64,000 nt of DNA from Patescibacteria group bacterium (GCA_030549895.1 JAUQQM010000001.1:117624-181623); one strand, 5' to 3'. Numbered from the stretch's first letter, positions 6,293-63,407 are shown. Notes: generated from the letters alone by a model not told the origin. Translations and numbers: made by a program.

Positions 6293-6301
6293 TGTTATAA
6301 T
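6293..6301 (+). promoter_or_regulatory. Extended -10 box TGTTATAAT upstream of rpsL
   Basis: TGnTATAAT lies 10 nt upstream of the rpsL ATG, with no Shine-Dalgarno sequence between them. Confidence 0.55.
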
Positions 6302-6311
6302 TTTTAACATT

Positions 6312-6719
6312 ATGCCAACAATAAATCAATTAGTCAGAAAAGGAAGAGAGAAAATTAAAAAGAAATCAAAAGCAGTAGCCCTTCTTTATCATTACAATAG
6401 CCTTAAAAAAAAGCTTTATTATCTACCTTCACCTTTTAAAAGAGGGGTTTGTGTTAGGGTTTATACAACAACTCCCAAAAAACCAAATTCAGCCTTAAGA
6501 AAAGTTGCTCGTGTAAGACTTTCAAATGGTTTTGAAGTAACAGCTTATATTCCTGGCGAGGGGCATAATTTACAAGAACATTCAATTGTTCTTGTTCGTG
6601 GAGGAAGAGTTAAAGATCTTCCAGGAGTAAGATATCACATTGTAAGAGGTGTTTATGATACAAGTGGTGTTGAAGGTAGAAAACAACAAAGATCAAAATA
6701 TGGTGTTAAAAAAGGATAA
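6312..6719 (+). CDS. rpsL: 30S ribosomal protein S12
   Basis: It is near-identical to the conserved S12 core ([42 protein letters not shown]). It carries roughly 10 extra residues near the N-terminus relative to E. coli S12. Confidence 0.95.
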
Positions 6720-6721
6720 AT

Positions 6722-7195
6722 ATGCCTAGGAAAAAGAGAAAAATTGAAAAAAGAGAAATTATACCTGATCCAGTTTTCAATAGCATTTATGTGACAAAGT
6801 TTATAAATTACTTAATGAAGGATGGTAAAAAAATGCTTGCTCAAAAAATATTTTATAAAGCTATGGAAAGGGTTAAAGAATTATCTGGTAAAGATCCATT
6901 AGAAGTTTTTAATACTGCTATTAAAAACTGCTCACCAGCTATGGAAGTTAGAGCTCGTCGTGTTGGTGGTGCTACTTATTTAGTACCCAGAGAAGTAAGA
7001 GTAAAAAGAAAATTTTTTTTAGCTTCCAAATGGATTATTGAAAGTGCTCGATCAAGAAAAGGAAAGCCAATGTTTGAAAAACTTGCTGAAGAATTTATTC
7101 AAGCCTTCAATCTTGAAGGTGAGGCAGTAAAAAAGAGAAAGGAATTAGAAAAAACAGCAGAAGCCAATAAAGCTTTTGCTCATTTTAACTGGTAA
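6722..7195 (+). CDS. rpsG: 30S ribosomal protein S7
   Basis: The S7 core is present (RRVGGATYLVP.EV, ANKAFAHF..W), and it sits in the str-operon position after rpsL. Confidence 0.95.
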   Translation: MPRKKRKIEKREIIPDPVFNSIYVTKFINYLMKDGKKMLAQKIFYKAMERVKELSGKDPLEVFNTAIKNCSPAMEVRARRVGGATYLVPREVRVKRKFFLASKWIIESARSRKGKPMFEKLAEEFIQAFNLEGEAVKKRKELEKTAEANKAFAHFNW

Positions 7196-7196
7196 A

Positions 7197-7267
7197 GGCG
7201 GGGTGGTGGAGTAGTACCACGCAGGTCTCATAAGCCTGAGACGCAGGTGCAAATCCTGCCCCCGCAA
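7197..7267 (+). tRNA. tRNA-Met (anticodon CAU), initiator-like, with an atypical D and T loop
   Basis: It aligns by eye to E. coli tRNA-fMet. Its acceptor is GGCGGGG...CCCCGCA-A with a 1:72 mismatch and its anticodon loop is CTCATAA. The D loop AGTAGTA lacks GG and the T loop is TGCAAAT rather than TTCAAAT. Confidence 0.65.
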
Positions 7268-7285
7268 CAAGTCTTTAAAGCTATC

Positions 7286-9983: not shown

Positions 9984-10830
9984 ATTTTCTGGTTTTACTT
10001 TAGTTGAAGTTATAATTTATTTTGGAATTTTAATTTTTGTTCTTTCAATGGTAGTTCAAATAGTTGTTCCTTTCTTCAAGACTAGTACTCTTACAAAAGA
10101 ACAAACAACCTTAAGACAAGAAATTGCTTATCTTATTGAAAAAATTACCTCTCAAGCAAAAACTTCAAAAAATATTTATGTTACTTCAGATTGGATTTTA
10201 AATTTTGAAAAACCAGAAAATAGAACCTATCTAAGGTTTGCTAAGAGTGCTTTTCTTGATCAAAATAACGATCTTATGGGTTTTATGAGTAATTGGTTTA
10301 TTGGAAGTATTTCTTTTAACTGCAAAAATTTTACTTCAACTTGCTCAACTTATAAAGTCTGGTATAATAATAGTAATAAAAGACTTGAAGGATGGGCCTG
10401 GTCTCCAATTATTGGCTGGGTTCATTTTAATACCACAACCTATTCAGTTAATTTTAATTCTTCAACAAATGAATTTTATGGTTATGCCTGGAATGATATT
10501 ATAGGTTGGATAAAATTTAACTGTAATGAAAATGGCAATTCTTCATTATGCCAGAATAAATGGGCAGTAAAATTGAATGAATCATATCTTACAGGATATG
10601 CCTGGAACGAGACAGTTGGTTGGATAATTTTTGATGGTAAAAATCAAAATGTATATTTTAAAGACTCAAGCCAAGATGGGGAGCTTATTTCAGAAAAGAT
10701 ATTTTTTGATGAAGTAAAGTTTGAAAAAGTTAATAGTTCAATTAATGGTTATTTTAAAGCTAGCATTTCAGATAAAAAAGAATTTTCAATTCAAAATTAC
10801 ATAAATGTAATTCCAGGAAATTTAAGATGA
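9952..10830 (+). CDS. Prepilin-type protein with G[WY]AW..x..GW.xF[ND] repeats
   Basis: The class III signal is classic: a leader ending in G, then FTLVEVIIYFGILIFV. The C-terminal part has three clear 14-aa repeats. Confidence 0.75.
   Translation: MVKQNLSWQNKFSGFTLVEVIIYFGILIFVLSMVVQIVVPFFKTSTLTKEQTTLRQEIAYLIEKITSQAKTSKNIYVTSDWILNFEKPENRTYLRFAKSAFLDQNNDLMGFMSNWFIGSISFNCKNFTSTCSTYKVWYNNSNKRLEGWAWSPIIGWVHFNTTTYSVNFNSSTNEFYGYAWNDIIGWIKFNCNENGNSSLCQNKWAVKLNESYLTGYAWNETVGWIIFDGKNQNVYFKDSSQDGELISEKIFFDEVKFEKVNSSINGYFKASISDKKEFSIQNYINVIPGNLR
10390..10635 (+). repeat. Three copies of a 14-aa Trp/Gly motif within the pilin-like CDS
   Basis: The copies are GWAWSPIIGWVHFN (10390-10431), GYAWNDIIGWIKFN (10480-10521) and GYAWNETVGWIIFD (10594-10635). 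All are in frame and spaced 30 and 38 aa apart. Confidence 0.85.
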
Positions 10831-11219
10831 AACTAAAAGCCCAAGCTTCACTACCTTCATTTTTGATAATTACGCTTTTAATTTTAATTGTTATTTCTAC
10901 CCTTGGATATGCTGGAATAAATGAAATGTTTTCTGCTGAAAGAGAAAGAAATTTAAACTATGATTGGGCTCTTTTACAAAACGGCCTTAATGAAGCTCTT
11001 ATAAGACTTGCAAGAAATAAAAATATAAATGGCGAAAGTTTTATTTTAAATTTTCCTTTCGGAAGCGTAAGTACAACAATTTATCAATCTTCATCTAATG
11101 TTATTGTTGATTTAGAAGCACGACCAAGTGGCCTTCTTTCTTTAAAAAAGAGGGCTGAAGCAATTTTAAAAGTTGATAGTTTCGGCGTTATAAATTTTAT
11201 TTCATTTAAAGAAAAATAA
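10827..11219 (+). CDS. Small N-terminally anchored protein, possible minor pseudopilin
   Basis: It has an N-terminal hydrophobic helix (SLPSFLIITLLILIVISTLGYAG) and its start overlaps the preceding pilin-like gene as ATGA. No clean G-x4-E motif is present. Confidence 0.4.
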   Translation: MKLKAQASLPSFLIITLLILIVISTLGYAGINEMFSAERERNLNYDWALLQNGLNEALIRLARNKNINGESFILNFPFGSVSTTIYQSSSNVIVDLEARPSGLLSLKKRAEAILKVDSFGVINFISFKEK

Positions 11220-11222
11220 CTA

Positions 11223-11305
11223 GCCGGGGTGGTGGAATTGGTAGACACGCAACCTTCAGGAGGTTGTACCCTCGTGGTGTGTGGGTTCGAATCCCACCCC
11301 CGGCA
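11223..11305 (+). tRNA. tRNA-Leu (anticodon CAG)
   Basis: The acceptor is GCCGGGG/CCCCGGC, the anticodon loop is TTCAGGA and the T loop is TTCGAAT. It has a long variable arm. Confidence 0.85.
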
Positions 11306-11311
11306 CCTAAC

Positions 11312-13036
11312 ATGAAGACTTTAACAAAAAGACAAAAAATTTTAAAAGACTTTCAAGAAGATTTTCTTAAAATAGTTCCTTTAGGAGGACTTGAAGAGAT
11401 TGGCAGAAATATGACTTATTTTGAATATAAGGATGATATCATCATTGTTGATATGGGCTTAGGATTTCCCGATACTGAAGCTATGCCTGGAGTTGATTTT
11501 ATAATTCCTAATATTCAATCTTTAGAGGGTAAAGTAGATAAAATTAGAGGGATATTTATCACCCATGGCCACTATGATCATATAGGTGCTATTCCATATT
11601 TAATAGATAAATTAGGTAATCCACCAATTTATGCAACCCCACTTTCAAAGGGAATAATTTTAAGAAGACAAGAAGACTTTCCTTATGCCCCAAAGCTTCA
11701 AATAATAGAATTTCAAAAAAATTTAAAAGAAAAAATAAAAGTTGGTAATTTTGAAATTGAATGGTTTCATGTAAATCATAACATTCCAGATTCTGTTGGT
11801 TTTTTGATTAAAACTCCAGTAGGAAATATTATTCATACAGGCGATTTTAAAATTGATTTTACTCCGATGTGTGATTTACCAGCTGATCTTGTAAGAATAG
11901 TTGAGCTTTCAAAAGATATTACCCTTCTTATGGCAGACTCAACTAATGCAGATAAACCAGGTCATGTTATCTCTGAGAGAGAAATAATGAAAAATCTAGA
12001 AGAGATTTTTAAAGATGCTCCAAAAAGAATCTTTGCTTCTACTTTTGCTTCCTTAATTGAAAGAATTCAGCAACTTATTTGGCTTTCGGAAAAATATCAA
12101 AGAAAAGTTGTTATCGATGGTTATACCATGAAAATGAACGTTGAAGTTGCTAAAGCTATGAATTTTATTAAAGCTAATAAATTTACTTTCATTAGTCCTG
12201 AGGAAGCTTTAAAGATGGACCCTTCAAGAGTTACTGTTATTTGTACTGGAGCTCAAGGCGAGGATAATTCTGTTTTAATGAGAATTGCTAATGGTGAACA
12301 TAAATACTTTAAAATTCAACCATTAGATACCGTAATTTTTTCTTCATCTGTTGTTCCTGGTAATGAAAGATCAGTCCAAGCCTTAAAAGATCAACTTTAC
12401 AGGCAAGGAGCAAGAGTTTTTCACTATCAGATGATGGATATCCATGCTTCTGGACATGCTTATGCTGAGGACTTAAAACTTCTTTTAAAGATAGTAAATC
12501 CTAAATACTTTATGCCAATTCACGGACATTTCTATCTTTTAAAGCAAGCTGGTGAAATAGCAGAAAATCTTGGTTATTCGCCAGAGCAGATAATAATTGC
12601 CAGAAACGGTAGTGTTATTTATCTTACAAAAAATAAAGTTTGGGTAAGTGAAGAAACTGTTCCATCTAATTATGTTTTCGTTGATGGACTTGGTATTGGT
12701 GATGTTGGTGAAGTTGTCTTGCGAGATAGACAAGTTATGTCAAAAGATGGAATCTTTGTAATTCTTACTGTTATTGATAGCCAGACAGGAAGACTAAGAA
12801 CAAGCCCAGATATAATTTCTCGAGGTTTTGTTTACTTAAGAGAGTCTCAAGAACTTCTTAAAGAAGTAAGAAATCTTATTAAGAAAATAATAGCTAGATC
12901 AATAAATCAAGACTCCCCAAGACCATTTATTAACGAAGAATATATTAAAAATAACATAAAAGAGGAAGTTGGAGAATTTCTTTTTAAAAAAACTCATCGA
13001 AGACCAATGGTTATTCCTGTAATAGCTCAAGTATAA
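11312..13036 (+). CDS. rnj: Ribonuclease J (metallo-beta-lactamase/beta-CASP)
   Basis: It shows HGHYDHIG, the beta-CASP motifs and a C-terminal domain, with a length typical of RNase J. I moved the start to 11312 because the track start overlaps tRNA-Leu. Confidence 0.85.
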   Translation: MKTLTKRQKILKDFQEDFLKIVPLGGLEEIGRNMTYFEYKDDIIIVDMGLGFPDTEAMPGVDFIIPNIQSLEGKVDKIRGIFITHGHYDHIGAIPYLIDKLGNPPIYATPLSKGIILRRQEDFPYAPKLQIIEFQKNLKEKIKVGNFEIEWFHVNHNIPDSVGFLIKTPVGNIIHTGDFKIDFTPMCDLPADLVRIVELSKDITLLMADSTNADKPGHVISEREIMKNLEEIFKDAPKRIFASTFASLIERIQQLIWLSEKYQRKVVIDGYTMKMNVEVAKAMNFIKANKFTFISPEEALKMDPSRVTVICTGAQGEDNSVLMRIANGEHKYFKIQPLDTVIFSSSVVPGNERSVQALKDQLYRQGARVFHYQMMDIHASGHAYAEDLKLLLKIVNPKYFMPIHGHFYLLKQAGEIAENLGYSPEQIIIARNGSVIYLTKNKVWVSEETVPSNYVFVDGLGIGDVGEVVLRDRQVMSKDGIFVILTVIDSQTGRLRTSPDIISRGFVYLRESQELLKEVRNLIKKIIARSINQDSPRPFINEEYIKNNIKEEVGEFLFKKTHRRPMVIPVIAQV

Positions 13037-13047
13037 TTGAATTAAAT

Positions 13048-14262
13048 TTAATTTTCAACTTTTAAGAAAGGTAAAAATCCTAGAATTGCTAAACTTGTAA
13101 GACCAGAGACAACAATCAAAGGACCAAGACCAATTTTCTCATATAGCCAACCACCTAAAGCACTTGAAACCATTGCTCCTATATTCATAATTGAAGTTAC
13201 AAAAGCAAAAATACTCCCAGCAAGTTTTGGATTAGTTTTTTTAGCAGCAAAAGTAAGCATTGTTAGAAAAAAAATCATCCCCAACAGTCCAAAGACAAAA
13301 CTATCAAAGACAGCTAAGATTTTAGCAAAATTTAAATTCTTTCTTAAAAAAGGACTTAAATAAAGTAAAGCTTCAAAAGTTAAAATTCCGCCTAAAAAGA
13401 CTGACCAGAAAAGAAGTTTTTTAAATTTTATTCGTTTTGCTAGAAAAGCAAAAATTAATGTTCCAAGAGTAGAACCCAGAGCACTTAAAGAAGATAAACT
13501 ACCAAGAAATGTTTTTGAAAATTTTAAAACATCTACTTGATAATAAAACATTGGTGAGCCAAACGAAGGAGAAAATCTCCATAAAAATAAAAATAGATTA
13601 ACTAAAAGAAATTCTTTATTCAAAACAGCTGATTTAAAATTTTCTTTAAACTCTTTAAATTTTAAGATTGGTTCTTCTTCATTTTTTCTTAAAAAGAAAA
13701 ATGTCATTAAAGCTATCGTTAAAGGGAAAAAAATAGCAATACCAAAAGTTGTTTGAGCTCTTAATTTTTCCGCAGCCAAACCTCCGCTAAAACCAGTAAT
13801 AATTTGAGCTATTGAGACTCCAAACCATTGAGCTCCTTGAAACTGAATAAGTTTTTCCTCTTTTTTGCCAAGTTCGATCATTAAAGCATCAGTTACCACA
13901 TCCTGAAAAGCATAAGCAAAAGAAGAAACAGTAAGAACTATTAAAAGAAACCAAACACTGTAGCTGGGCGTAAAGGAAAGAATTAACCAACAAAAGCTTG
14001 CTATAAGACTTGTTAAAATTAGATAACTTTTTCTTTTACTTCCAAAAAGAGGAACTAAATCAGATATTAGTCCCCATAAAGGTTTTATTGCCCAACCAAG
14101 AATGGTAATAGCACTAAAATAAGCAAGTTGAGTGGCGCTTAAGTGTAACGTTTCTTTTAAAATAAAATTTAAAGTTAAATTTGGTAAAGATGAAAGCCCA
14201 TTAGTTGAGAAAAAGTAAACTGAAGCAAAAATTATCAAATATTTAATTTTCTTCAACATCAT
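13048..14262 (-). CDS. MFS transporter, folate-biopterin transporter (BT1)-like
   Basis: It has about 12 predicted TM helices. The motif GWAIKPLWGLISDLVPLFGSKRKSYL resembles the BT1-family signature. Confidence 0.55.
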   Translation of the reverse strand: MMLKKIKYLIIFASVYFFSTNGLSSLPNLTLNFILKETLHLSATQLAYFSAITILGWAIKPLWGLISDLVPLFGSKRKSYLILTSLIASFCWLILSFTPSYSVWFLLIVLTVSSFAYAFQDVVTDALMIELGKKEEKLIQFQGAQWFGVSIAQIITGFSGGLAAEKLRAQTTFGIAIFFPLTIALMTFFFLRKNEEEPILKFKEFKENFKSAVLNKEFLLVNLFLFLWRFSPSFGSPMFYYQVDVLKFSKTFLGSLSSLSALGSTLGTLIFAFLAKRIKFKKLLFWSVFLGGILTFEALLYLSPFLRKNLNFAKILAVFDSFVFGLLGMIFFLTMLTFAAKKTNPKLAGSIFAFVTSIMNIGAMVSSALGGWLYEKIGLGPLIVVSGLTSLAILGFLPFLKVEN

Positions 14263-14403
14263 GTTATTTTAATTATACTTTTAAAAGTCTCTTATTGAAA
14301 TTTTTATAAATTGTTTTATAATTTTAAAAAATAAATTTAACAGGCTAATTTCATTCTAATATGGTTTTTTATAAATTTTTGAATGGGTTAGCTTGTCCTT
14401 TTT

Positions 14404-15924
14404 ATGGCAAGCTTAGGATTTTTGATTTTATCTTTAATTTTAGGTCTTATAGGTGGTTATTTAATAAGAACATTCATTGGTTTGAAATTTTTAAGGAATG
14501 CCGAAAAGGATGCTTTAAAAAGAATTGAGGAGGCAAAGGTAAAAGAAAAAGAGATAATTCTTGAGGCAAAAAATAAAGCTGTTGGTATTCTTGAAGAAGT
14601 AAAGAAAGAAGAAAAGAAAAAATTAGAAGAATTAAGAAAGAGAGAGGAGAGAATTTTTAAAAAAGAGGAAGAACTTGATTTTAAAGAAAAAGAACTCGAA
14701 AAAGAAAAAGGTAAATTAAATCAAGAGCTTGATAAAGTTTTAGCTATAAAAAAAGAAATCGAAGAACTAAAAGAAAAAAAGATAAAAGAACTTGAGAGGA
14801 TTTCTGGTCTTAAATTAGAAGAAGCAAAGGAAATACTTCTTAAAGAAGTAGAAAGCATTTATAAAAATGAGGTTTTAGAGATAATTAAAAAATTTGAAAT
14901 ATATAGAAAAGAAGAGATAGAAAAAAGAGCAATAAATATCATAACTACAGTTTTGCCAAGATATGCAAGGTCTGTTGTTAGTGAATTTACAACCTCTCCT
15001 TTTTATCTTGAAAGTGACGAAATTAAGGGAAAAATTATAGGAAAAGAGGGAAGAAATATAAGGTATTTTGAAAATCTTACGGGTGTTGAAATTATAGTTG
15101 ATGAAACTCCAGGCGTGGTTACTCTTTCTTGTTTTGATCCAGTAAGAAGAGAAATAGCTAAACTAGCCCTAGAAAAACTTATAAAAGACGGAAGAATTCA
15201 TCCGGCAAAAATAGAAGAGAAAGTTCAAGAAGCAAAAGAGGAAATTAATCAAAAAATAAAAGAAGCAGGAGAAAATGCAGCCTACCAACTTGGCATTTTA
15301 GATCTTCCACCTCAAATTCTTCATCTTATGGGAAGGTTAGCTTTTAGAACAAGTTATGGCCAGAATGTTCTTTTACATTCGGTTGAAACTGCAATTTTTG
15401 CTCGGATGATTGCCGAAGAATTAGGGCTTGATGCTCGAATAGCTCTTTTAGGTGGTTTTCTTCATGATATAGGAAAGTCAGTTGATCATGAACTACCCGG
15501 AAATCATGTTGATCTTGGTATTAAAATTTTACAAAAATATGGAATCGATCAAAAAGTAATAGATGCAATGAAATCGCATCATGAAACTTATCCTTATGAA
15601 ATTCCAGAAGCTTATGTTGTCACCGCAGCTGATGTTCTTTCAGCTACAAGGCCTGGAGCAAGATCTGATACTTTTGAAAATTATCTTAAAAGACTTGAAG
15701 ATCTTGAAAAAATTGCTCTTTCGTTTGAAGGTGTAAATAAGGCATATGCTATTTCTGGTGGTAGAGAGATAAGAATTTTTGTTATTCCCGAGACAGTTGA
15801 TGACCTTAAAATGAGTTTTTTAGCAAAAGATATTGCGAAAAAAATAGAACAAGAATTAAAATATCCAGGTGAAATTAAGGTTGTTGTTATAAGAGAAACT
15901 AGAGCAGTAGAATTTGCTAAATAA
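14404..15924 (+). CDS. rny: Ribonuclease Y
   Basis: It has an N-terminal TM helix, a long coiled coil, a KH domain (GKIIGKEGRNIR) and an HD domain (LHDIGK). Confidence 0.9.
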   Translation: MASLGFLILSLILGLIGGYLIRTFIGLKFLRNAEKDALKRIEEAKVKEKEIILEAKNKAVGILEEVKKEEKKKLEELRKREERIFKKEEELDFKEKELEKEKGKLNQELDKVLAIKKEIEELKEKKIKELERISGLKLEEAKEILLKEVESIYKNEVLEIIKKFEIYRKEEIEKRAINIITTVLPRYARSVVSEFTTSPFYLESDEIKGKIIGKEGRNIRYFENLTGVEIIVDETPGVVTLSCFDPVRREIAKLALEKLIKDGRIHPAKIEEKVQEAKEEINQKIKEAGENAAYQLGILDLPPQILHLMGRLAFRTSYGQNVLLHSVETAIFARMIAEELGLDARIALLGGFLHDIGKSVDHELPGNHVDLGIKILQKYGIDQKVIDAMKSHHETYPYEIPEAYVVTAADVLSATRPGARSDTFENYLKRLEDLEKIALSFEGVNKAYAISGGREIRIFVIPETVDDLKMSFLAKDIAKKIEQELKYPGEIKVVVIRETRAVEFAK

Positions 15925-15931
15925 AACATTT

Positions 15932-15940
15932 TGTTATATA
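15932..15940 (+). promoter_or_regulatory. Extended -10-like box TGTTATATA, 9 nt upstream of the ATG at 15950
   Basis: It has the same TGnTATAxx-N6-10-ATG layout seen at other first genes in the window. Confidence 0.4.
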
Positions 15941-15949
15941 ATTATAATT

Positions 15950-18285: not shown

Positions 18286-18286
18286 C

Positions 18287-21339: not shown

Positions 21340-21340
21340 T

Positions 21341-21356
21341 TGGTATAATTATAACA
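21341..21356. promoter_or_regulatory. Bidirectional promoter core: overlapping extended -10 boxes around the palindrome TATAATTATA
   Basis: The plus strand has TGGTATAAT (21341-21349) 9 nt before the ATG at 21359. The minus strand has TGTTATAAT (21356-21348) 8 nt before the ATG at 21339. The two start codons are 19 bp apart. Confidence 0.6.
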
Positions 21357-21358
21357 TT

Positions 21359-22707: not shown

Positions 22708-22713
22708 TAATTT

Positions 22714-23040: not shown

Positions 23041-23046
23041 TTTAAA

Positions 23047-47341: not shown

Positions 47342-47342
47342 T

Positions 47343-50283: not shown

Positions 50284-50672
50284 TTCTTTTACCAATTTTT
50301 CTTCAAGCTCTCTTTTATAGATATTTTTTCTTTCTTTTATTTTTTAATCTTTCTCTTTTTTTAAAAGATAATAAACTTTTAAGGACTTCTTTTTTGAGTT
50401 CTTTGATATTTGATTTTTTAAATGGTAATTTTTTAGGTTTTAGCATTTTATTTTTAATTTTTGATTATTTCTTTTTTTTGATTTTGAATAAATTTTTTTT
50501 AAAAACTATAAGTCTTTTTTTTGTCTTTAATTTAATTTGTGTATTTTTATTCTCCTATTTAGCCTATAGTTTATTTAGTAAGTTTGGGTCATTTTTATTT
50601 ATAACTTTTTTTCTAAAAAATCTTCTCTTGGTTATAATATTTACAATATACTATGCGAGAGCAAGAACTTGA
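50280..50672 (+). CDS. mreD: Rod-shape protein MreD-like membrane protein
   Basis: This 130-aa polytopic hydrophobic protein sits in the canonical position after mreC. Confidence 0.5.
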   Translation: MILLPIFLQALFYRYFFFLLFFNLSLFLKDNKLLRTSFLSSLIFDFLNGNFLGFSILFLIFDYFFFLILNKFFLKTISLFFVFNLICVFLFSYLAYSLFSKFGSFLFITFFLKNLLLVIIFTIYYARART

Positions 50673-52434: not shown

Positions 52435-52441
52435 TTAATTT

Positions 52442-54163: not shown

Positions 54164-54178
54164 ATTATAATTTAAACG

Positions 54179-55198: not shown

Positions 55199-55775
55199 AA
55201 GTAACTCTATGGATTTTACAAAGACCAGACTTTTTTATTTTCTTAAGATGTTCTTTTGTGCCATAACCTTTGTTTTTTTCTAAGCTCCAATAAGGATATT
55301 CCTTAGAAATTTTTTGCATGAAAAGATCTCTTTTAAATTTACATATTACTGAAGCCGAGGCAAGAGAAAAGATTTTTCTATCACCTTTTACAATAAAGAT
55401 AAATTTTCTTTTATTTTTAAAAGAGCCAAATGCTTTACCATCTATAAGAACATAATTTGGCTTAAAAAAATTTACTAATTTTTTAATAGCTAATTCTTCT
55501 GACTTTACAATACCAATTTTATCTATTTTTTGAGGGCTTATTTTTTCAACTCTGTATTTAAATATTTTCCTTAATTTTTTAAAAATTTTTTCTCTTTGAA
55601 TTTGACTTAGAAGTTTTGAATCTTTTACCCAAAAATCAATTTTAGGTATTTTTTTAAGAAAAATTCCACAAACAAAAAGTGGTCCAGCTAAAGCACCTCT
55701 TCCAGTTTCATCTATTGCCAAAATTGGTCCTTTTTTGATTAATTTTTTTTCAAATTCAAAATCATAAATTTTCAT
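55134..55775 (-). CDS. rnhB: Ribonuclease HII
   Basis: It has the ILAIDETGRGALAGPL active-site motif and a downstream DSK. Its 3' end overlaps the convergent gene by 65 nt. Confidence 0.85.
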   Translation of the reverse strand: MKIYDFEFEKKLIKKGPILAIDETGRGALAGPLFVCGIFLKKIPKIDFWVKDSKLLSQIQREKIFKKLRKIFKYRVEKISPQKIDKIGIVKSEELAIKKLVNFFKPNYVLIDGKAFGSFKNKRKFIFIVKGDRKIFSLASASVICKFKRDLFMQKISKEYPYWSLEKNKGYGTKEHLKKIKKSGLCKIHRVTFIPSPLLKYLSKKNSVLSKTL

Positions 55776-55788
55776 TGTTATAATTATA
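55776..55788. promoter_or_regulatory. Bidirectional promoter core: overlapping -10 boxes around the palindrome TATAATTATA
   Basis: The plus strand has TGTTATAAT (55776-55784) 8 nt before the ATG at 55793. The minus strand has TATAAT (55788-55783) 7 nt before the ATG at 55775. The two start codons are 17 bp apart. Confidence 0.6.
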
Positions 55789-55792
55789 ATTT

Positions 55793-58132
55793 ATGGATCA
55801 AAGTTTGAGTAAAATTTCCTTAGAAGAAGTTAAGAAAAATTTAAATGCAGATGAAAAAGGTTTAACTAGCCAAGAAGCCCAAGAAAGATTAGAGAAATTT
55901 GGCCAAAATAGAATTTTTCAACCACCAAAATTTAATTGGTTTAAATTTTTTCTTGATGAATTAAGAAATCCATTTATAATTCTTTTAAGTATTTCATTTT
56001 TAATTTCTCTCTATTTTAAATATTTTAAGGAAGCTTATCTTATACTTTTTGTTATTCTTTTTCAGCTTATTTTAGTTTATTTTCATAAGATTTTCTCCTA
56101 TAAGTCTCTGAAAAGTCTTTATAATTTTTTGAAAAATACTGCAGTTGTCAAAAGAGATGGAAAATGGACTGTAATTGATTCAAATTTTATTGTTCCTGGA
56201 GATGTCTTGAGACTTTCTTCTGGTGATCAAGTACCAGCAGACTCAAGAATCTTAAAGTCTTATGATTTAAGCGTAAACGAGGCTTTTTTGACAGGCGAAA
56301 GTTTACCAGTAGAGAAAAAAAATAGTGATACTCTTTGGGCAGGAAGTTTTGTTGTTTCTGGCGAGGGAGAGGCTATTGTTTTTAGTACTGGCAAAAATAC
56401 TTATTTTGGGAAAATTACTTCAACAATAGGAGAAATTAAAGAGGAGACTTGGGAAGAAATATGGAAAATTGGTAAAAAAATTCTTTATTTTGTTTTAATT
56501 TTATCTTTTGCAATTTTTATTCTTGCTTTATTTGAAAAAATAGACCTTAAAGAGACTTTTATTTATATTATTTCTATAATAGTTAGCGCTGTACCAGAAG
56601 GTTTGCCTTTTGCTATTTCAGTGTTAATTTTCTTTCAAGTAATAAAACTTTACAAAAGAAGTGTTCTTACTAGAAATATAAATGCAATTGAAAATTTAGG
56701 TAAAATTGAAGTTATTTTAACTGATAAAACTGGGACAATTACTGAAGGGGATTTTAAGTATGTTGGTTTTTATAGTTCAAAAAAAGTCAGTAAAGATGAG
56801 GAAAATAAAATACTTGCCTTTATTTTATCAAATCTTCATCCTAAAAGTTTGTTTTACAATTCATTAAAAGAGCACGTTCAAGAGGTTGAGATAACAGTTA
56901 AAAAAAAGAAACCTTTTGATAGCAAACATAAATATTCTGTAAATACTTTTGAGTTTAATAATGAAAAATACATTTTAGTTGTTGGCGCTCCAGAATATAT
57001 CATCAAAAATTTTAATGTTAAAACTTCAAAAAAAATTTTTGATGAAATTTTGTCTTTAACTGTTCAAGGAAATAGACTTCTTGGTTGGGCAATAAAAAAG
57101 ATAAATAAAAATTCAAAAAAGAAATTTTTTGATAATTTTGGTTTTTTAATTTTTTCTGACAAGATAAGAGAAAGTGCAAAGGAGACAATTTCTAAACTTA
57201 AAGATTTAAATGTAGATATATTTTTAGTCACGGGTGATTTTCCAGAAACAGCTAGAAACGTTGCTCAAAAAATAAATCTTTCTGATAAAGTTAAAGATTC
57301 TTTTGATTTAGATTTTGATTGTAAAGTCTGGGCAAGAATGAAACCGGAAGAAAAGTTTATGATGGTAAAAGAACTCAAGAGGCAGTCAAAAAAGGTTCTA
57401 ATGATTGGCGATGGAATAAATGATGCTCCAGCAATAAAAGAAGCCGATGTTGGTTTTTCTTTGAATTCTGGAACAGATGTTGCTAAAGATGTTTCTGATT
57501 TTATTCTTATGGATGGCAATTTAGATAATGTAGCTTTTTCCTTAAAAGAAGGAAGAAAATTTATAATGGCAATAAAAAAATTATTCCTTGTCATTTTTAC
57601 TCTTTCCTCAGACATAAGCATTTTATTTTTCTTTTCCTATCTTTTAAACTTACCAAAACCGCTTTATCCAAATCAAGTTTTATTTATAAATATCGTCCAA
57701 GATACTCTTTTAGCTTTGTTTTTAATTTTTAATGAAGATTTTTCAAAATTTCCTTCAAAGAAAATTTTTGATAAAAATTTAACAAAATCATTTATTTTTT
57801 CGCTTACAGTTTTTCTTTTAATAAGCTTTTTTGTTTACTTTTTTTCTCTTTCAAAACCTAATTTAAAGACAATTTATTTTGTCTATAGTTTATTTGCTCC
57901 ACTTGTTTTATTTTTGAATATATTTAGGTTTGAAGGGAAAGATAAAAAAACTTTTATTTTCGCTATTTTATGGTTTTTGTTATTCCTTTTAATTTTTAAG
58001 ATAAGATTTATCTCTGAAGTTCTTTATTTAGATAATTTAGGTTTAAATGATTTAATTTTTGTTCTTCTTGTAAGTTTAATTTTAGGGATAGCTTTCAAAA
58101 TAGGGTATAATTTAAAAATCCTCGAGTTATAA
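55793..58132 (+). CDS. P-type ATPase, P2 (Ca2+/cation-transporting) type
   Basis: It has the N-terminal cation-ATPase domain (GLTSQEAQERLEKFGQN), a TGES-like TGESLP, PEGLP in TM4, DKTGTIT and GDGINDAPA. Confidence 0.85.
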   Translation: MDQSLSKISLEEVKKNLNADEKGLTSQEAQERLEKFGQNRIFQPPKFNWFKFFLDELRNPFIILLSISFLISLYFKYFKEAYLILFVILFQLILVYFHKIFSYKSLKSLYNFLKNTAVVKRDGKWTVIDSNFIVPGDVLRLSSGDQVPADSRILKSYDLSVNEAFLTGESLPVEKKNSDTLWAGSFVVSGEGEAIVFSTGKNTYFGKITSTIGEIKEETWEEIWKIGKKILYFVLILSFAIFILALFEKIDLKETFIYIISIIVSAVPEGLPFAISVLIFFQVIKLYKRSVLTRNINAIENLGKIEVILTDKTGTITEGDFKYVGFYSSKKVSKDEENKILAFILSNLHPKSLFYNSLKEHVQEVEITVKKKKPFDSKHKYSVNTFEFNNEKYILVVGAPEYIIKNFNVKTSKKIFDEILSLTVQGNRLLGWAIKKINKNSKKKFFDNFGFLIFSDKIRESAKETISKLKDLNVDIFLVTGDFPETARNVAQKINLSDKVKDSFDLDFDCKVWARMKPEEKFMMVKELKRQSKKVLMIGDGINDAPAIKEADVGFSLNSGTDVAKDVSDFILMDGNLDNVAFSLKEGRKFIMAIKKLFLVIFTLSSDISILFFFSYLLNLPKPLYPNQVLFINIVQDTLLALFLIFNEDFSKFPSKKIFDKNLTKSFIFSLTVFLLISFFVYFFSLSKPNLKTIYFVYSLFAPLVLFLNIFRFEGKDKKTFIFAILWFLLFLLIFKIRFISEVLYLDNLGLNDLIFVLLVSLILGIAFKIGYNLKILEL

Positions 58133-58133
58133 A

Positions 58134-59087
58134 ATGGGTATTTTGGAAAATATCTTAATTATCATATTTTTAGTTTTAGTTCTTATATTTTTTACACGAG
58201 TTTTTATAAAAAGTCTTTTGAATATTTCTTTTTATTTTAATTTTTCCGATTTTATAATTTCTTTTATTTTCGGTGGTATAGCTACCTCTTTACCAGAATT
58301 TTTATTCGGCTTTCAAAGTTCTTTAAAAAAAGTTAGTAATCTTTCTCTTGGAAATATTATTGGAGCAAACTTTAATGATGTAACTCTTGTTATTGCTTTG
58401 AGCTTGATTTTTAATCTTTTACAAGGAAGAAATTCTTATCAAGAGCTTAAGATTTCAACTAAAGAGTTTTTAGCAACATTTTTAGTAATAATTACTCCTT
58501 TTATAGTTGCTTTAAAAGGTAAATTTGGAATTTTTGAGTCAATAGTCTGTTTAATTCTTTTTTCTCTTTATCTTTACTATATCTTTAAAGAAAATAAATT
58601 TGAAAAACTAACTAAAAAAGAAATTAAATTTAAAGAATTTTTTCAAAGTATAATTTATCTTTTAATTTCTTTAATAATTCTTATAATTTCGAGTTATCTT
58701 ATTGTCTCAAGAGTAAAGTTTTTAGTTGAGATTTTTGGAATTTCAAGTTTTGCCTTTGGAGCGCTTCTTCTTTCTTTCGGAACTACTTTACCCGAACTTG
58801 TTTTTTCTTATCAGACATTAAAAGAGAATTTAGTTTCTTTTGCTTTTGGAAATATTTTTGGTAGTTTAGTTTTTAATAGCAATTTTATTTTAGCTTTTAA
58901 CGGGATCATAAACGAATTTTATATTGAAAGCTCAGTAAAGCTTTTGATAAATATTCTCCTTTTGAGTGTAGCTATTATTTTCAATTTTTACTTTTTAAAA
59001 TACAAACGAGAGCCTCTTTCAAGTGCTTTATTTTTAATTTCTCTTTGGCTTTTATTTGCAGTTTTAAATTTTATATTTTTGTTTTAA
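58134..59087 (+). CDS. Ca2+/cation antiporter (CaCA, YrbG-like Na+/Ca2+ exchanger family)
   Basis: It has two alpha-repeat motifs, GNIIGANFNDVTLVIAL and GNIFGSLVFNSNFILAF, and about 10 TM helices. Confidence 0.75.
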   Translation: MGILENILIIIFLVLVLIFFTRVFIKSLLNISFYFNFSDFIISFIFGGIATSLPEFLFGFQSSLKKVSNLSLGNIIGANFNDVTLVIALSLIFNLLQGRNSYQELKISTKEFLATFLVIITPFIVALKGKFGIFESIVCLILFSLYLYYIFKENKFEKLTKKEIKFKEFFQSIIYLLISLIILIISSYLIVSRVKFLVEIFGISSFAFGALLLSFGTTLPELVFSYQTLKENLVSFAFGNIFGSLVFNSNFILAFNGIINEFYIESSVKLLINILLLSVAIIFNFYFLKYKREPLSSALFLISLWLLFAVLNFIFLF

Positions 59088-59096
59088 AATTATTAA

Positions 59097-60191
59097 ATGA
59101 AAAAGATAATTCCAATTTTGGTTTTTCTTGTAATTTGCCAACAGGCTCTAGCAGTTTCTAAAATTTTACCTAATAATCCATTTTATTTTTTTAAAAAAAT
59201 CTATTTTAGTTTAAAAGAAAACTTTACCAAAGATGTAGACAAAAAATTCGATTTTTATTTTGAAAACCTAAAAAACTCATACCAAGATTTTTATTTTTTA
59301 CTTTCTAAAGCACCGCAGGACTCAAGCAAAGCTTTAAAAGAGTTAAATGAAAGCCTTTTAAAAATTAAAAATTTTGTCTATTTTAACCAGATAGAAAAAA
59401 ATAAGATAAGCAAACTTAAAGATTTTATTTTTGAGCAAGAAAAACAAAATATAAAAGCTAAGGGCTCGATTTCGGCTTTAGAAAGAGAACTTTTTATTTT
59501 TCTTGCTTCAAAGGATAGTTTTGAAAATAATTTTGAACTTTTAAAGAAAATTCTTAGTAATGGTCTTAATGAAGAAAATATTAATTTAGTTTTTCAACTT
59601 AAGGAGATATTAAAAAATCAAAGAAATATTAAAGAGTGGGAAGTTGAATATCTTAGTTTTCTAAAAGACGAAAATACAGATTTTTTATTTAATAATTTGA
59701 ATCATGTAAAAATTAGCTTTATTTTTGATTATTGGAAAAAATATTTTTTAGAAAAGAAGATAAATCTTACAAAGATACAAAAAGAATCTGAAGTTTTGCT
59801 TGCTAAAGAAGATCAAATAAATAGGGAACTTTTAGAAGAAACTCTTTATTGGTTTTATGATAAATTAAAAGATAATAAAAAACAGAAAGAAAATTTTAGA
59901 AAAAAGATTGAATCAAGATCAGAAGAAAATTTTGTTCCAGAAACTTTTGAGATAATAATTTCTCTTATTCAAGAGATAACCTCACCAAAATATAGTTGCG
60001 AGTTTATTTGGGAGCCAGTCTGTGGAGTTGATGGAAAAACTTATTCTAATTTTTGCTTTTTAAATCTTGCTAAAGTGAAGTTAGCTTATCTTGGTAGTTG
60101 CATAACTTTAAATGATCTTGAAAAAGAGATTAACTCAATAAAAGATCCAGAAGAATTTAAAGAAGATTTTCCTGAAATTGAAGAATTCTAA
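59097..60191 (+). CDS. Secreted protein with a C-terminal Kazal-type domain
   Basis: It has a signal peptide (MKKIIPILVFLVICQQALA) and a C-terminal CEFIWEPVCGVDGKTYSNFCFLNLAKVKLAYLGSC, which fits the Kazal pattern (PVCG.DG.TY.N.C). Confidence 0.65.
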   Translation: MKKIIPILVFLVICQQALAVSKILPNNPFYFFKKIYFSLKENFTKDVDKKFDFYFENLKNSYQDFYFLLSKAPQDSSKALKELNESLLKIKNFVYFNQIEKNKISKLKDFIFEQEKQNIKAKGSISALERELFIFLASKDSFENNFELLKKILSNGLNEENINLVFQLKEILKNQRNIKEWEVEYLSFLKDENTDFLFNNLNHVKISFIFDYWKKYFLEKKINLTKIQKESEVLLAKEDQINRELLEETLYWFYDKLKDNKKQKENFRKKIESRSEENFVPETFEIIISLIQEITSPKYSCEFIWEPVCGVDGKTYSNFCFLNLAKVKLAYLGSCITLNDLEKEINSIKDPEEFKEDFPEIEEF

Positions 60192-60194
60192 ATA

Positions 60195-60203
60195 TGTTAT
60201 AAT
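60195..60203 (+). promoter_or_regulatory. Extended -10 box TGTTATAAT, 6 nt upstream of the ATG at 60210
   Basis: This is an exact TGnTATAAT with no Shine-Dalgarno sequence. Confidence 0.55.
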
Positions 60204-60209
60204 AATTTA

Positions 60210-60566
60210 ATGAGAATGATTGACCTTATAATTTTAGCCTTATTTCTTTTGTCTTTTTCTATTTATATTACTTTTGCTTGGAGAGAGCCAGCTGGATCAC
60301 CACCAGGGGGAAGTGGTGTTTTACAAGGAACTGATAGTGGAGATTTAATAGTGACAGGCAACTTGAATGTAAATTTTTCTTCAAATATAACTGGAAACGA
60401 AATTATTGGAGGGAAACTTGAAGTTGGTGGACCGTTAAAAGTTGGTTCAGCTGCAAGTCCTAAGGGTATTACCCTTTATTCTATAGATACATTCAGTCCC
60501 TATTGCCTAAAAGTTAGTGCTTCTCCTACTCCAGCTATCCAGTTGGTATCAGGAGAATGCCAATAA
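60210..60566 (+). CDS. Small N-terminally anchored protein (118 aa) with an AWREPAGSPPGG segment
   Basis: An N-terminal TM helix is followed by a Pro/Gly segment and a Gly-rich beta-like region, ending in ...SGECQ. Confidence 0.5.
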   Translation: MRMIDLIILALFLLSFSIYITFAWREPAGSPPGGSGVLQGTDSGDLIVTGNLNVNFSSNITGNEIIGGKLEVGGPLKVGSAASPKGITLYSIDTFSPYCLKVSASPTPAIQLVSGECQ

Positions 60567-60567
60567 A

Positions 60568-61455
60568 ATGAATATTTACAAAAATATAAGAGAAAATATT
60601 TTTAAAACTTGGTTACTTATCTTTTTAATATTTGTCTTTATTGTTTTAGTTGGTTTTGTTCTTTCTTTTGTTTTTAACTCAAGGGCAATCTTGTATCTTG
60701 CTATAATTTTTGGTCTTCTTATGAATTTTATTTCTTATTTTTGGTCAGATAAATTAGTTATTGCTATGGTTGGAGCTCAAAAGATAGAAAAAAAAGATTT
60801 TCCCGAGCTTTGGAATATTGTTGAAAATCTATCTCTTACCGCAGGAATTCCAATGCCAAAAATTTATATCTGGAAAACAAATGCTTTAAATGCTTTTGCT
60901 ACAGGAAGAAATTATAAAAATTCAGCTATTGTAGTCACCTCAGCCATTTTAGATGTTTTAAACAAACAAGAACTCGAAGGAGTTATTGCTCATGAGATTT
61001 CTCATATCAAAAATAGAGATATTTTAGTAGGAACAGTTGCAGCTATTTTGGTTTCAATTATCTCTCTTATAGGAGATTTTACTTTAAGAAGTTTTTGGTT
61101 TTCTTCTGATAGAGACCGAAATATAAATCCAATTGTTTTTATTTTAGCTGTTATAGGTCTTATTCTTTCTCCAATATTTGCTCAATTGATTCAGTTAGCA
61201 ATTTCAAGGCAAAGAGAATTTTTAGCAGACTCTAGTGGTGTTCTTCTTACTCGATACCCCGAAGGTTTAGCTAATGCTCTTTTGAAAATATCTCAAAATC
61301 CAACAGTTTCTGCCCCTCAAAGCTTTTCTCATCTTTTTATAGCTAATCCTTTCAAAGCAGATCAAAGAACAAAAAAGACTCCCTGGTACATAAAAATTTG
61401 GCTTACTCATCCACCAATTGAAGAAAGAATTAAAAGAATCTTAGGTAGAGTTTAG
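60568..61455 (+). CDS. htpX: Zinc metalloprotease HtpX (M48 family)
   Basis: It has [10 protein letters not shown] (HExxH), four TM segments and a downstream EF.AD motif. I set the start at the ATG at 60568. Confidence 0.85.
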
Positions 61456-62477
61456 AACCAAGGTAGAAAAATTTCTAAATTTCCATCTAAGACTTCATCT
61501 AAATTTTTAGTTTCTTTTCCTGTTTTATGATCTTTTACTAATTTATATGGATGAAATATGTAAGATCTTGTCTGATGCCCCCAACTTGGCTCTAAATCTT
61601 TTTCTTTAAGTTCTTCTATTTTTTTAGCATTTTTTTCTTTCTGAAGAGCTAGAAGTTTTGATTTTAAAAACATTAGAGCTTTTTGTCTATTTTGGTGCTG
61701 AGATCTTTCTGACTGGCATAGAGCAGAAATTCCTAAAGGTTTGTAAATTACTCTTACAGCGGTTTCAACTTTATTTACATTTTGACCACCAGGGCCAGAA
61801 GCCCTAAAAAATTCAAACTCTAGATCATTTTCATTTAATTCAATTTCTTTTTCCTCAATAACTGGTATTACTTCAACAAGAGCAAAACTTGTATGTCTTA
61901 ATTTTTTAGCTGAAAAAGGAGAAATTCTAACTAATCTATGCACTCCAGCTTCATTTTTCAAAATACCATAAGGATAATCATTATTTACTTCAAAGGTTAT
62001 ATTTTTATAGCCTCCATAATCATTTGGATGTTCGTGGACAATTTTATATTTAAAATTATGTTTTTCAAAAAATCTTTCATACATTCTTTTTAATATCCCT
62101 ACCCAATCTTCAGCATCTTTACCCCCAACCCCACTTTGAATTGTTAGTAGCGCTGGATTTTTATCATACTCTCCACTAAAAATTAGCTCTTTTGTAAGTT
62201 TTCTTATTCTTTCTCTTAGTTTTTGAGGATCAAAATTTTCCCTTGTAATTTCATCTTCTATGTTTTTTATTTCTTCAAGAATATTTTTAGATTTTTGGTA
62301 TTTTTCTATTAATTTTATATTCTCTTCATTTTCCCAAAATGACGAGCTAGTCATTTGTTTTTGAATTTCTTCAACTTCTTTTGTTAATTTTTCAAAATTA
62401 GCAGCCTTTTTAAGACTGTTTAAATCAACTATTAAGTTTTCTCTTTCATTTTCTAATTCTTTTTTTGTTATTTCCAT
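61452..62477 (-). CDS. prfB: Peptide chain release factor 2 (contiguous ORF, no programmed frameshift)
   Basis: It has the SPF tripeptide (RISPFSA) and GGQ ([10 protein letters not shown]). I set the start at the ATG at 62477 (MEITKKELE); the track extension overlaps truB. Confidence 0.85.
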
Positions 62478-62481
62478 GATT

Positions 62482-63387
62482 TTATATCGTTGAAAAAACC
62501 CTATAAACTGGATCTGGTTTTTGAAAAACAATGTCTATTTTAGTTATACTTGAAAGTGAGGGAGCAAATTTAAACTGATCTATGATTTTCTCTATCAAAT
62601 TTTCCTTTCCTTGTAAAATTACTTCAACAGTACCATCAGGGAGGTTTTTAGCATAGCCAACTATTTTGAATGAGTCAGCCAAATTTTTTATAAAATTTCT
62701 CATACCAACACCTTGAACCCTTCCATAAAGCCTTATTTTTGCTTCTAGGAAATTTTTTTGAAAGTCTTCAAGAGTAAGCGATTTTTCAACTGTAAATGGA
62801 CCAACTCTTTTTCTTAAAAGTTTAGCAAGATAAGCACCAGTTCCTATAGCCTTTCCAAAATCATGAGCAAAAGATCTTACATAAAAACCAGCACTGCTTA
62901 CAATATTGAAAACTACATATGGCCAATTGTAAGAGACAAGCTCTATTTTTTTAACCAAAACTTTCCTTGATTTTAAAATTATTTCTTTTCCTTCTCTAGC
63001 GTACTTGTAAGCTGGTTTTCCTTTTATTTTTACAGCGCTATAGATAGGTGGAACTTGTTCAATTACACCCCTAAATTTTTGCATAGTTTCAATAATTTCG
63101 TCTTCTTTTGGGATTTTTTCAAAATTTACTTTCACAATTGGCCCCTCAGAGTCAAATGTTTCACTTACCTTTCCTAACTCTAAAGTTGCTAAGTATTCTT
63201 TTTCCATTTCTTTTATTTCATTTTGGTCTTTAGTGTATTCATCAAATAAAATTATAAGAACTCCTTCTGCTAAAGGATCTAAAGTACCACCATGACCTAC
63301 TTTTTTATTGTAGGATTTCCTAAAAAAATCTACAATTTCAGCCGATGTTTTTTTAATTGGCTTGTAAAAATTTAGAATTCCTCTCAT
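62482..63387 (-). CDS. truB: tRNA pseudouridine-55 synthase TruB fused to a C-terminal acylphosphatase-like domain
   Basis: The TruB catalytic core is present ([17 protein letters not shown]). The C-terminal ~88 aa carry [12 protein letters not shown]..., the acylphosphatase signature, instead of a PUA domain. Confidence 0.75.
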
Positions 63388-63390
63388 TTG

Positions 63391-63399
63391 TGTTATAAT
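63391..63399 (+). promoter_or_regulatory. Extended -10 box TGTTATAAT, 8 nt upstream of the secD ATG
   Basis: This is an exact TGnTATAAT with no Shine-Dalgarno sequence. Confidence 0.55.
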
Positions 63400-63407
63400 T
63401 TAAATTT

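Follow-up and report, generated by a model that had tools for sequence, protein, structure and literature searches.

How does translation begin in a bacterium whose genes lack recognizable Shine–Dalgarno (SD) elements? The question is raised by a 64-kb stretch of DNA from a Patescibacteria group bacterium (GCA_030549895.1; hereafter, the window), a gene-dense sequence of 29% GC with mostly plus-strand genes and seven tRNAs, in which the hexamer TATAAT—the sequence of a bacterial –10 box—recurs a few nucleotides ahead of start codons. Judging from the sequence, we consider it likely that sigma-70 promoters abutting the coding regions give rise to leaderless or near-leaderless first genes and coupled downstream genes. 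In the mechanism we propose, the –10 hexamer would end 5–10 nt (mode 6–8 nt) ahead of the start codon in most genes that are transcribed independently and, with the same placement, ahead of the mature 5′ end of tRNA units, as part of either an extended –10 promoter (TGnTATAAT) or a TTGnnn-N16–18-TATAAT promoter. RNA polymerase would initiate ~7 nt past the –10 box, preferably at a purine, so that the 5′ end falls at the A of the AUG or 1–5 nt upstream of it, and ribosomes would load directly on the 5′-terminal AUG without SD pairing. Downstream genes would be translated by termination–reinitiation, via ATGA or TAATG overlaps or from starts within about 5 nt of the upstream stop, leaving essentially no role for pairing between SD and anti-SD.

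In DNA of this composition, the boxes could be products of chance, arising from AT-rich intergenic sequence and from TAA stops beside short intergenic regions. The regions upstream of the starts are indeed 80% A+T, generic promoter-like matches occur at shuffle level, and TATAAT contains TAA, which at polX is the stop codon of the upstream gene. Nonetheless, this explanation is already refuted, and we assign it practically no weight. TATAAT lies 5–10 nt upstream of 15/47 gene-start ATGs versus 9/1471 other ATGs (Fisher p = 2e-18), and the exact hexamer stands at this distance in 18 (16 genes and two tRNAs) of the 32 unit starts without tight coupling, where 0.81 were expected when each upstream 40-mer (80% AT) was shuffled (2000 shuffles, maximum 5 sites). 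Spacers of 5, 6, 7, 8, 9, and 10 nt occur 1, 4, 6, 4, 2, and 1 times, respectively, giving a sharp histogram that peaks at 6–8 nt and is nearly empty elsewhere, with the spacers found in all three reading frames. The extended motif TGnTATAAT has 11 matches in 128 kb (the window, both strands) versus 4.6 expected, and eight of the 11 lie 6–10 nt ahead of a start codon or a tRNA 5′ end; the remaining TATAAT-N5–10-ATG cases in the window number just eight, every one intragenic. The TG and –35 elements are enriched too (see below), the layout is kept in relatives with diverged flanks, and it is absent (0/8) from the distant Parcubacteria locus L095, which is equally AT-rich (27.5% GC). An AT-rich background, raised by the original prediction as the finding that would undo it, therefore fails to account for the boxes in the window, which are positionally enriched by both counts.

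The earlier reading of this DNA had listed 16 sites, all of which we re-read. The spacers were as stated, except that the box of the gene at 15950 is ambiguous, with 7 nt if read as TATAAT or 9 nt if read as TGtTATATA. The accompanying claim that the sites have no SD-like element held as well, with GGAG, GAGG, and AGGA not found within 20 nt at any of the 16. Five additional sites emerged (14262 and 30324 on the minus strand, rpsT at 5060 on the minus strand, 59097, and 23047). The start-adjacent boxes are the following.

5058–5076, minus strand, ATG 5060: rpsT, TGtTAAAAT (one mismatch), 7-nt spacer
6116–6137, both strands: dnaJ/tRNA-Val divergent intergenic region of 22 bp; the palindrome ATTATAAT at 6123–6130 gives TATAAT on each strand
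ATG 6115, minus strand: dnaJ, TATAAT, 7-nt spacer
5′ end 6138, plus strand: tRNA-Val, TATAAT, 7-nt spacer
6293–6314, plus strand: rpsL, TGTTATAAT, 10-nt spacer, ATG
14260–14277, minus strand, ATG 14262: BT1/MFS transporter gene, TATAAT at 14272–14277, 9-nt spacer
15914–15952, plus strand, ATG 15950: Sigma70_r4-domain gene, TTGCTA, 17-nt gap, TATAAT at 15937–15942, 7-nt spacer
21337–21361, both strands: 21339/21359 divergent intergenic region of 19 bp with two overlapping extended –10 boxes
21341–21349, plus strand: box TGGTATAAT of gene 21359, 9 nt before the ATG
21348–21356, minus strand: box TGTTATAAT of gene 21339, 8 nt before the ATG
22699–22716, plus strand, ATG 22714: tRNA_bind-domain gene, TGTTATAAT, 6-nt spacer
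23036–23049, plus strand, ATG 23047: rpiB, GATAAT (weak, one mismatch), 5-nt spacer
28800–28817, plus strand: tRNA-Phe, TGTTATAAT, 8-nt spacer, mature 5′ G; heads a four-tRNA cluster
30322–30335, minus strand, ATG 30324: hypothetical 395-aa gene, TATAAT at 30330–30335, 5-nt spacer
44267–44304, plus strand, ATG 44302: hypothetical 478-aa gene, TTGATT, 17-nt gap, TATAAT, 6-nt spacer
45724–45761, plus strand, ATG 45759: frr, TTGAAG, 16-nt gap, TATAAT, 7-nt spacer
52406–52444, plus strand, ATG 52442: polX, TTGAGA, 18-nt gap, TATAAT at 52430–52435, 6-nt spacer
54166–54181, plus strand, ATG 54179: AI-2E transporter gene, TATAAT, 7-nt spacer
55773–55795, both strands: rnhB/ATPase divergent intergenic region of 17 bp, start codons 18 bp apart
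ATG 55793, plus strand: P-type ATPase, TGTTATAAT at 55776–55784, 8-nt spacer
ATG 55775, minus strand: rnhB, TATAAT at 55783–55788, 7-nt spacer
59085–59099, plus strand, ATG 59097: Kazal-like gene, TAAAAT (one mismatch), 6-nt spacer
60195–60212, plus strand, ATG 60210: hypothetical 118-aa gene, TGTTATAAT, 6-nt spacer
63388–63410, plus strand, ATG 63408: secD (partial, runs off the window), TGTTATAAT at 63391–63399, 8-nt spacer

Control regions between divergent units are, in full, 17–22 bp long (6116–6137, 21340–21358, 55776–55792, and 63388–63407) and consist of overlapping or palindromic (ATTATAAT) boxes plus their spacers; in the last of them, truB (ATG 63387, minus strand) faces secD and has only a weak box of its own. 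At polX, the preceding PBP2 gene ends in a TAA stop (52432–52434) that is embedded in the –10 box, such that a single hexamer serves two functions.

The spacers can be trusted only as far as the start codons. At 14 of the 16 protein-gene sites, no other possible start lies between the preceding in-frame stop and the ATG, and the open reading frame (ORF) therefore cannot extend upstream. All box-adjacent starts are ATG, and they agree with homologue lengths and with the choices of an independent gene caller. For gene 21359, for instance, the product has 445 aa versus 441–455 aa in homologues, and the gene caller picked the same start. The N-termini match their families as well: rpsL begins MPTINQL, the J-domain of DnaJ starts from residue 3, and the N-terminus of the 15950 product (MIVKE/MIAKE) is conserved in relatives.

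Spacing alone cannot separate a promoter from an mRNA signal, because 5–9 nt is also the distance between an SD element and its start codon. The boxes might accordingly be UAUAAU elements that act as a non-SD ribosome-binding signal on leadered mRNAs, either as an A/U-rich site for bS1 or by pairing with an altered 16S tail in the style of group B genomes; that 5–10 nt is likewise the optimal SD-to-start spacing would suit such a signal, and with SD elements absent another signal might be expected. We regard this as very unlikely given the features that accompany the boxes. TG sits at exactly –15/–14 in 9/21 boxes versus a dinucleotide background of 3.5% (p = 1.7e-8), and the best –35 score at 16–18 bp averages 3.24 versus 2.66 in shuffles (p ~0.0015). 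The two elements, both of which are RNA-polymerase features with no mRNA role, complement each other: TTG at –35 is found at 0/9 TG-bearing sites versus 5/12 non-TG sites (Fisher, one-sided p ~0.04; hexamers TTGAGC, TTGCTA, TTGATT, TTGAAG, and TTGAGA). Promoters of the sigma-70 type classically trade one element for the other, an extended –10 or a –35. Moreover, the identical box and spacing precede tRNA-Val (TATAAT, 7 nt) and tRNA-Phe (TGTTATAAT, 8 nt), which, alone among the tRNA units, do not directly follow a protein gene; tRNA genes are untranslated, which points to a promoter and not an mRNA signal. At divergent pairs, the boxes of the two strands overlap, and the highest-scoring full promoters of an independent promoter scan are those adjoining starts. 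Finally, the box is missing from all 19 genes of the window that are tightly coupled, whereas group B motifs precede all genes (PMC6028130). Because of the TG position, the –35 complementarity, the tRNA units, and the absence at coupled genes, we read the boxes as sigma-70-type promoters.

If these promoters set the 5′ ends of mRNAs, what happens at genes without one? Coupled genes have neither a –10 box nor an SD. The claim that internal genes rely on ATGA or TAATG overlaps proved partly right: the window has six ATGA overlaps and one TAATG, and about 14 further coupled genes either begin +1 to +5 nt past the stop of the gene before them or overlap that gene by 7–65 nt.

2403–2406, plus strand: ATGA overlap of nusG and rplK; the other five ATGA overlaps start at 2825, 10827, 16999, 49594, and 50280
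46311–46315: TAATG overlap, the single case in the window

We also considered nusG as a leadered first gene, and rejected it: the end of secE (1690–1860) lies 3 nt ahead of nusG, which makes nusG a coupled gene. The secE gene contains a perfect promoter, TTGATT-17-TGCTATAAT (1816–1844), 19 nt ahead of nusG.

In all gene classes, SD motifs occur at close to background frequency. GGAGG has 58 matches, only one of which (40110) is in SD position, and GGAG, GAGG, or AGGA occurs 4–17 nt upstream of 7/48 genes, versus a background of 7–9%. With the same crude gene caller, control loci of other phyla gave SD-like 4-mers in 23–80% of cases (41–80% in six of eight loci). The exception in the window is the following gene.

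40106–40126, plus strand, ATG 40124: perfect SD AAGGAGGTGA; product with a T9SS sorting domain (Por_Secre_tail), situated among unannotatable genes

Two inserted genes with perfect SDs, AAGGAGGTGA and GGGAGGTGA, are found in L092 (8384–9939), one of the relatives described below. In the window, the stretch at 40106–44300 also holds the minus-strand gene 41986, which has GGGGG/AAGGA upstream. These rare SD-carrying genes are probably recent imports. Most bacterial prfB genes carry an SD-stimulated +1 programmed frameshift. The window's prfB (61452–62477, minus strand), which encodes RF2 with its SPF motif and has its ATG 4 nt after the truB stop, lacks it, being a single uninterrupted ORF.

Does the lineage explain the poverty in SD motifs? 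EF-G, the beta-CASP protein, and PolX have their best relatives in metagenome-assembled genomes (MAGs) labelled Patescibacteria, Paceibacterota, Parcubacteria, or Minisyncoccia, and the window is therefore part of a chromosome of the candidate phyla radiation (CPR; Parcubacteria). EF-G is just 64% identical to the closest species representative in a genome-collection scan, and a metagenome scan with the ATPase as query returned a single match, one strain at 98% identity. Within one Parcubacteria subgroup that lacks the ribosomal protein uL1, the anti-SD motif is missing from 16S rRNA (Tsurumaki et al. 2022, RNA 28:1041; PMC9297842), and uL1-less Parcubacteria largely coincide with the lineages devoid of the 16S anti-SD motif (PMC9297842). 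In the window (1690–3400), secE-nusG-rplK is followed directly by tmk, and not by rplA-rplJ-rplL; in L094 (15452–17520), rplK precedes a TP_methylase gene, again with no rplA there. As read at the rplK cluster of a 64-kb window, rplK without an adjoining rplA would fit a uL1-less Parcubacterium. Neither the window nor any of 12 related loci contained an rRNA gene. Together with the near-background SD motifs, the rplK cluster would fit a probable loss of the anti-SD in the window's organism.

The layout was also followed in relatives. Our close relatives comprise L084 and L086 (67% protein identity) and L090, L092, and L093 (76–79%), all with 24–28% GC. A motif-blind gene caller placed TATAAT at 5–8 nt in 24/55 of their first genes, with a peak at 5–6 nt, and at none of about 25 coupled genes. 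Orthologues of frr, polX, rnhB, and the AI-2E, ATPase, sigma_r4, and tRNA_bind genes are boxed in relatives; at orthologous promoters the box is kept, while the flanks plus the sequence or length of the spacer differ between genomes. Thus, frr has spacers of 7 nt in the window and of 6 and 6 nt in L090 and L092, both with TGTTATAAT; the AI-2E gene has 7 nt in the window and 6, 5, and 5 nt in L090, L092, and L093; and the tRNA_bind gene has a 6-nt spacer in the window and a conserved box with a 7-nt spacer in L084 and L086. For the sigma_r4 gene (15950), L084, L085, and L086 all retain the box at a distance of 7 nt. Not every detail is shared: ProRS is boxed in L090 and L092, yet coupled in the window, and the window's divergent pairs are 23–52 bp apart with separate boxes in close relatives.

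Distant Parcubacteria (L094–L096, L001, L002, L004, L005, and L007) are SD-poor as well, and show no clear box peak. Individual cases occur among the distant genomes, for example a Nealsonbacteria rpsL with TTGACT-17-TAAAAT-7-ATG. The tRNAs in distant Parcubacteria loci have no box at 7–8 nt, and leaderless tRNAs are therefore not general. Loci recovered as EF-G-based relatives (L001–L008) are centred on long ribosomal-protein operons and have almost no box-adjacent starts, which reflects scarce promoters plus real lineage differences; conservation was accordingly judged from other loci. Among the Parcubacteria sampled, SD-poverty thus appears broad and the abutting-promoter layout lineage-specific.

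Where would transcripts begin? In a comparison of 49 bacteria, ~7 bp separate the –10 element from the transcription start site (TSS) downstream of it, with a purine preferred at the start (PMC12641261). The 5–7 nt spacers consist almost entirely of T and A, and the A of the ATG would here be the expected +1. We infer the exact transcription start and the mode of ribosome loading from sequence. At rpsL, the 10-nt spacer would imply a leader of 3–5 nt at most.

Several observations weigh against a leaderless default. Spacers of 8–10 nt (rpsL, 21359, 14262, perhaps 55793 and secD) would imply leaders of 1–5 nt. About one third of the uncoupled genes are without a close box. A generic promoter scan found no overall excess (92 sites versus 85.5 expected) in 27%-GC DNA; what carries the case is thus position together with the TG/–35 features. 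The perfect SDs of gene 40124 and the two L092 genes would be odd if the anti-SD were wholly gone, unless these are recent imports. Finally, leaderless mRNAs are probably accompanied by polycistronic read-through transcripts, since many boxes are just 6–25 nt behind a same-strand upstream gene and intrinsic-terminator-like hairpins are not above chance (4 found versus 6.5 expected in the window at 44001–64000); transcription units may lack canonical terminators altogether.

The last point leads to an alternative in which the promoters are real but their layout is a passive by-product of genome compaction, with translation mainly on read-through transcripts (by reinitiation or 70S scanning) or from leaders of 3–6 nt. 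Nine boxed genes that start 6–25 nt after a same-strand gene leave no room for a terminator, the terminator-like hairpins do not exceed chance, 8–10 nt spacers do occur, and internal promoters come and go among relatives, as for ProRS in L090 and L092 versus the window. Read-through, however, cannot reach the divergent pairs (6115/6138, 21339/21359, 55775/55793, and 63387/63408), which show the same tight spacing, and the genes at 44302, 14262, and 30324 follow long intergenic regions, yet are spaced alike. Moreover, the spacing peaks at the canonical –10-to-TSS distance in both window and relatives, which mere compaction would not enforce, and the starts concerned are all ATG. We therefore consider this alternative unlikely, although less so than an mRNA signal, and retain abutting promoters with leaderless or near-leaderless first genes as the preferred reading. 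In the window, then, the core of the original prediction—abutting promoters, an unused SD, and coupling downstream—came through all sequence and comparative tests, while the 8–10 nt spacers would speak against a strictly zero leader.

How general is the layout within the window? Once genes with tight coupling or a preceding tRNA are set aside, 29 protein genes are left; the exact box precedes 16 of them (55%), and allowing one mismatch brings the count to 19 (66%). A near-universal leaderless layout, as had been proposed, overstates this 55–65%; calling it the default is fair. The roughly ten of these 29 genes without a close box include RNase Y, RNR, 30469, 31628, 36374, 40124, 41986, 42754, and truB, of which RNase Y, RNR, 30469, 31628, and 42754 look leadered by sequence.

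Two of these genes bear further description. A conserved hairpin, GCUUGUC-N8-GRCAAGC (window 14372–14424, L084 3009–3061, and L086 775–827), has the RNase Y start codon at the edge of its loop; its folding z-score is –1.1 in the window, versus –4.1 and –5.5 in the two relatives. Counted from the closest full promoter-like site, which ends at 14322, the leader would be ~75 nt long. The hairpin may be an autoregulatory structure, or one that presents the start codon in an SD-less genome. Upstream of RNR, a TTGACA –35 element is kept in relatives, and the leader is longer in L084 and L086.

The same promoter placement bears on tRNAs. The first tRNA of the Val and Phe units would be made without a 5′ leader, rendering RNase P unnecessary for it; the downstream tRNAs of the Phe-Lys-Leu-Gly cluster still need processing. 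A tRNA may also create an mRNA 5′ end: tRNA-Leu ends 4 nt ahead of the RNase J ATG at 11312 (11223–11314, plus strand), an adjacency kept in L084 (1108–1198; 67% identity), and, by analogy with punctuated transcripts, tRNA 3′ processing would leave a near-leaderless RNase J mRNA. Between rpsG and fusA lies tRNA-Met (7197–7268), with the fusA ATG (7286) 17 nt after it.

Is such an initiation regime unusual for a bacterium, as had been suggested? In part. Leaderless first genes are known from the ~1000 genomes, mostly Actinobacteria and Deinococcus, that form GeneMarkS-2 group C, where a Pribnow box 6–10 nt from the first-gene start is the leaderless signature, validated by differential RNA sequencing in M. 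tuberculosis and D. deserti (PMC6028130). The window resembles group C in having this box at first-gene starts and not at internal genes, and the extent is comparable, with a predicted or measured leaderless fraction of 25–64% of operons in group C (PMC6028130) and 55–65% of uncoupled genes fitting the layout in the window. What differs is the lineage, CPR/Parcubacteria of 24–29% GC not being among those reported, and the lack of SDs at internal and leadered genes: these use SD in group C, whereas here SD motifs are near background in every gene class. The box itself is near-perfect TATAAT, often TG-extended, unlike the degenerate TAnnnT of high-GC actinobacteria, and, unlike the Bacteroidota-like group B motif found before all genes, it is absent from coupled genes and present before tRNAs.

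Among SD-independent systems, haloarchaea such as Haloferax volcanii and Halobacterium salinarum have mostly leaderless mRNAs, and their leadered mRNAs do not use SD. The window would share with them (group D) leaderless first genes and SD-independent initiation elsewhere, but its signal is a bacterial sigma-70 –10 box 6–8 nt upstream instead of TATA/BRE elements at ~22–26 nt and archaeal initiation factors. Mammalian mitochondria combine leaderless mRNAs, no SD, and tRNA punctuation; the window would be alike in its 5′-terminal starts, lack of SD, and one conserved punctuation-like case at tRNA-Leu/RNase J. Mitochondrial 5′ ends come from few long processed precursors, whereas here many individual promoters would mainly set them. 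Warman and colleagues reportedly described, in Nat Microbiol in 2021, bidirectional bacterial promoters that arise from the symmetry of the –10 element. The divergent units of the window similarly share overlapping or palindromic –10 boxes (ATTATAAT) within 17–22 bp, with the difference that both starts are start codons or a tRNA 5′ end, and the intergenic region is nothing other than the –10 pair plus spacers.

The closest comparison is with the uL1- and anti-SD-less Parcubacteria (PMC9297842): the window comes from the same broad lineage, has no rplA after rplK, and shows SD motifs near background. Beyond that description, an alternative initiation layout is visible here, apparently restricted to the window's lineage among sampled SD-poor Parcubacteria. 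Tsurumaki et al. 2022 describe how the anti-SD is missing, state its role as unknown, and mention neither a replacement nor leaderless mRNAs (PMC9297842); the pattern of ribosomal-protein loss in CPR has been likened to that of mitoribosomes (PMC9297842). In a literature search across 8 million full texts, we found no paper joining leaderless genes with CPR, Patescibacteria, Saccharibacteria, Parcubacteria, or Paceibacteria. Leaderless architecture as such is known from Actinobacteria, Deinococcus, and archaea; the window differs in the lineage, the near-consensus and often extended –10, the leaderless-looking tRNAs, and the lack of SD at leadered and internal genes. If confirmed, the layout would give a concrete answer to how translation starts in anti-SD-less CPR, a point left open by Tsurumaki et al. 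2022. Its presence in close relatives versus none in distant SD-poor Parcubacteria provides a comparison set for the replacement of an initiation mechanism during genome reduction. Tentatively, and as a possibility that falls somewhat short of an even chance, the lineage may have given up SD initiation entirely in favour of a bacterial regime resembling that of mitochondria or haloarchaea, with 5′-terminal AUGs from abutting promoters (occasionally from tRNA punctuation), tRNAs made from their mature 5′ nucleotide, and the rest translated by reinitiation, in compensation for an earlier loss of anti-SD and uL1 that other Parcubacteria without abutting promoters would have in common with it. On the practical side, SD-tuned gene callers will misplace starts in these MAGs, which a –10-box model at 5–8 nt would fix, and the extreme promoter economy—17–22 bp divergent regions, a stop codon inside a –10 box—is relevant to minimal-genome design.

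The gene content of the window, in order of listing, is as follows. Names of frr, M50, ProRS, MreB/MreC, PBP2, AI-2E, and RNase HII, and likewise of the P-type ATPase, a Na/Ca exchanger, and the Kazal-like gene, were assigned via synteny with annotated relatives.

First set: ClpB-like, secE, nusG, rplK, tmk, gatB, rpsT, dnaJ
Second set: rpsL, rpsG, fusA
Third set: RNase J, RNase Y, sigma70_r4-domain protein, beta-CASP nuclease, RNR
Fourth set: frr, M50 protease, ProRS, MreB/MreC, PBP2, PolX, AI-2E transporter, RNase HII, P-type ATPase
Fifth set: prfB, truB, secD

The RNR ORF (23710–28755) encodes 1681 aa, and its L086 orthologue (10500–14319) has intein and LAGLIDADG matches; the window's RNR gene therefore probably carries one or more inteins. 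Two adjacent, very large ORFs of 1440 and 1237 aa occupy 32039–40087, and their products are probably secreted or located at the cell surface. The 1237-aa ORF has several full promoter-like matches in its interior, with ends at 37240, 38620, and 39555.

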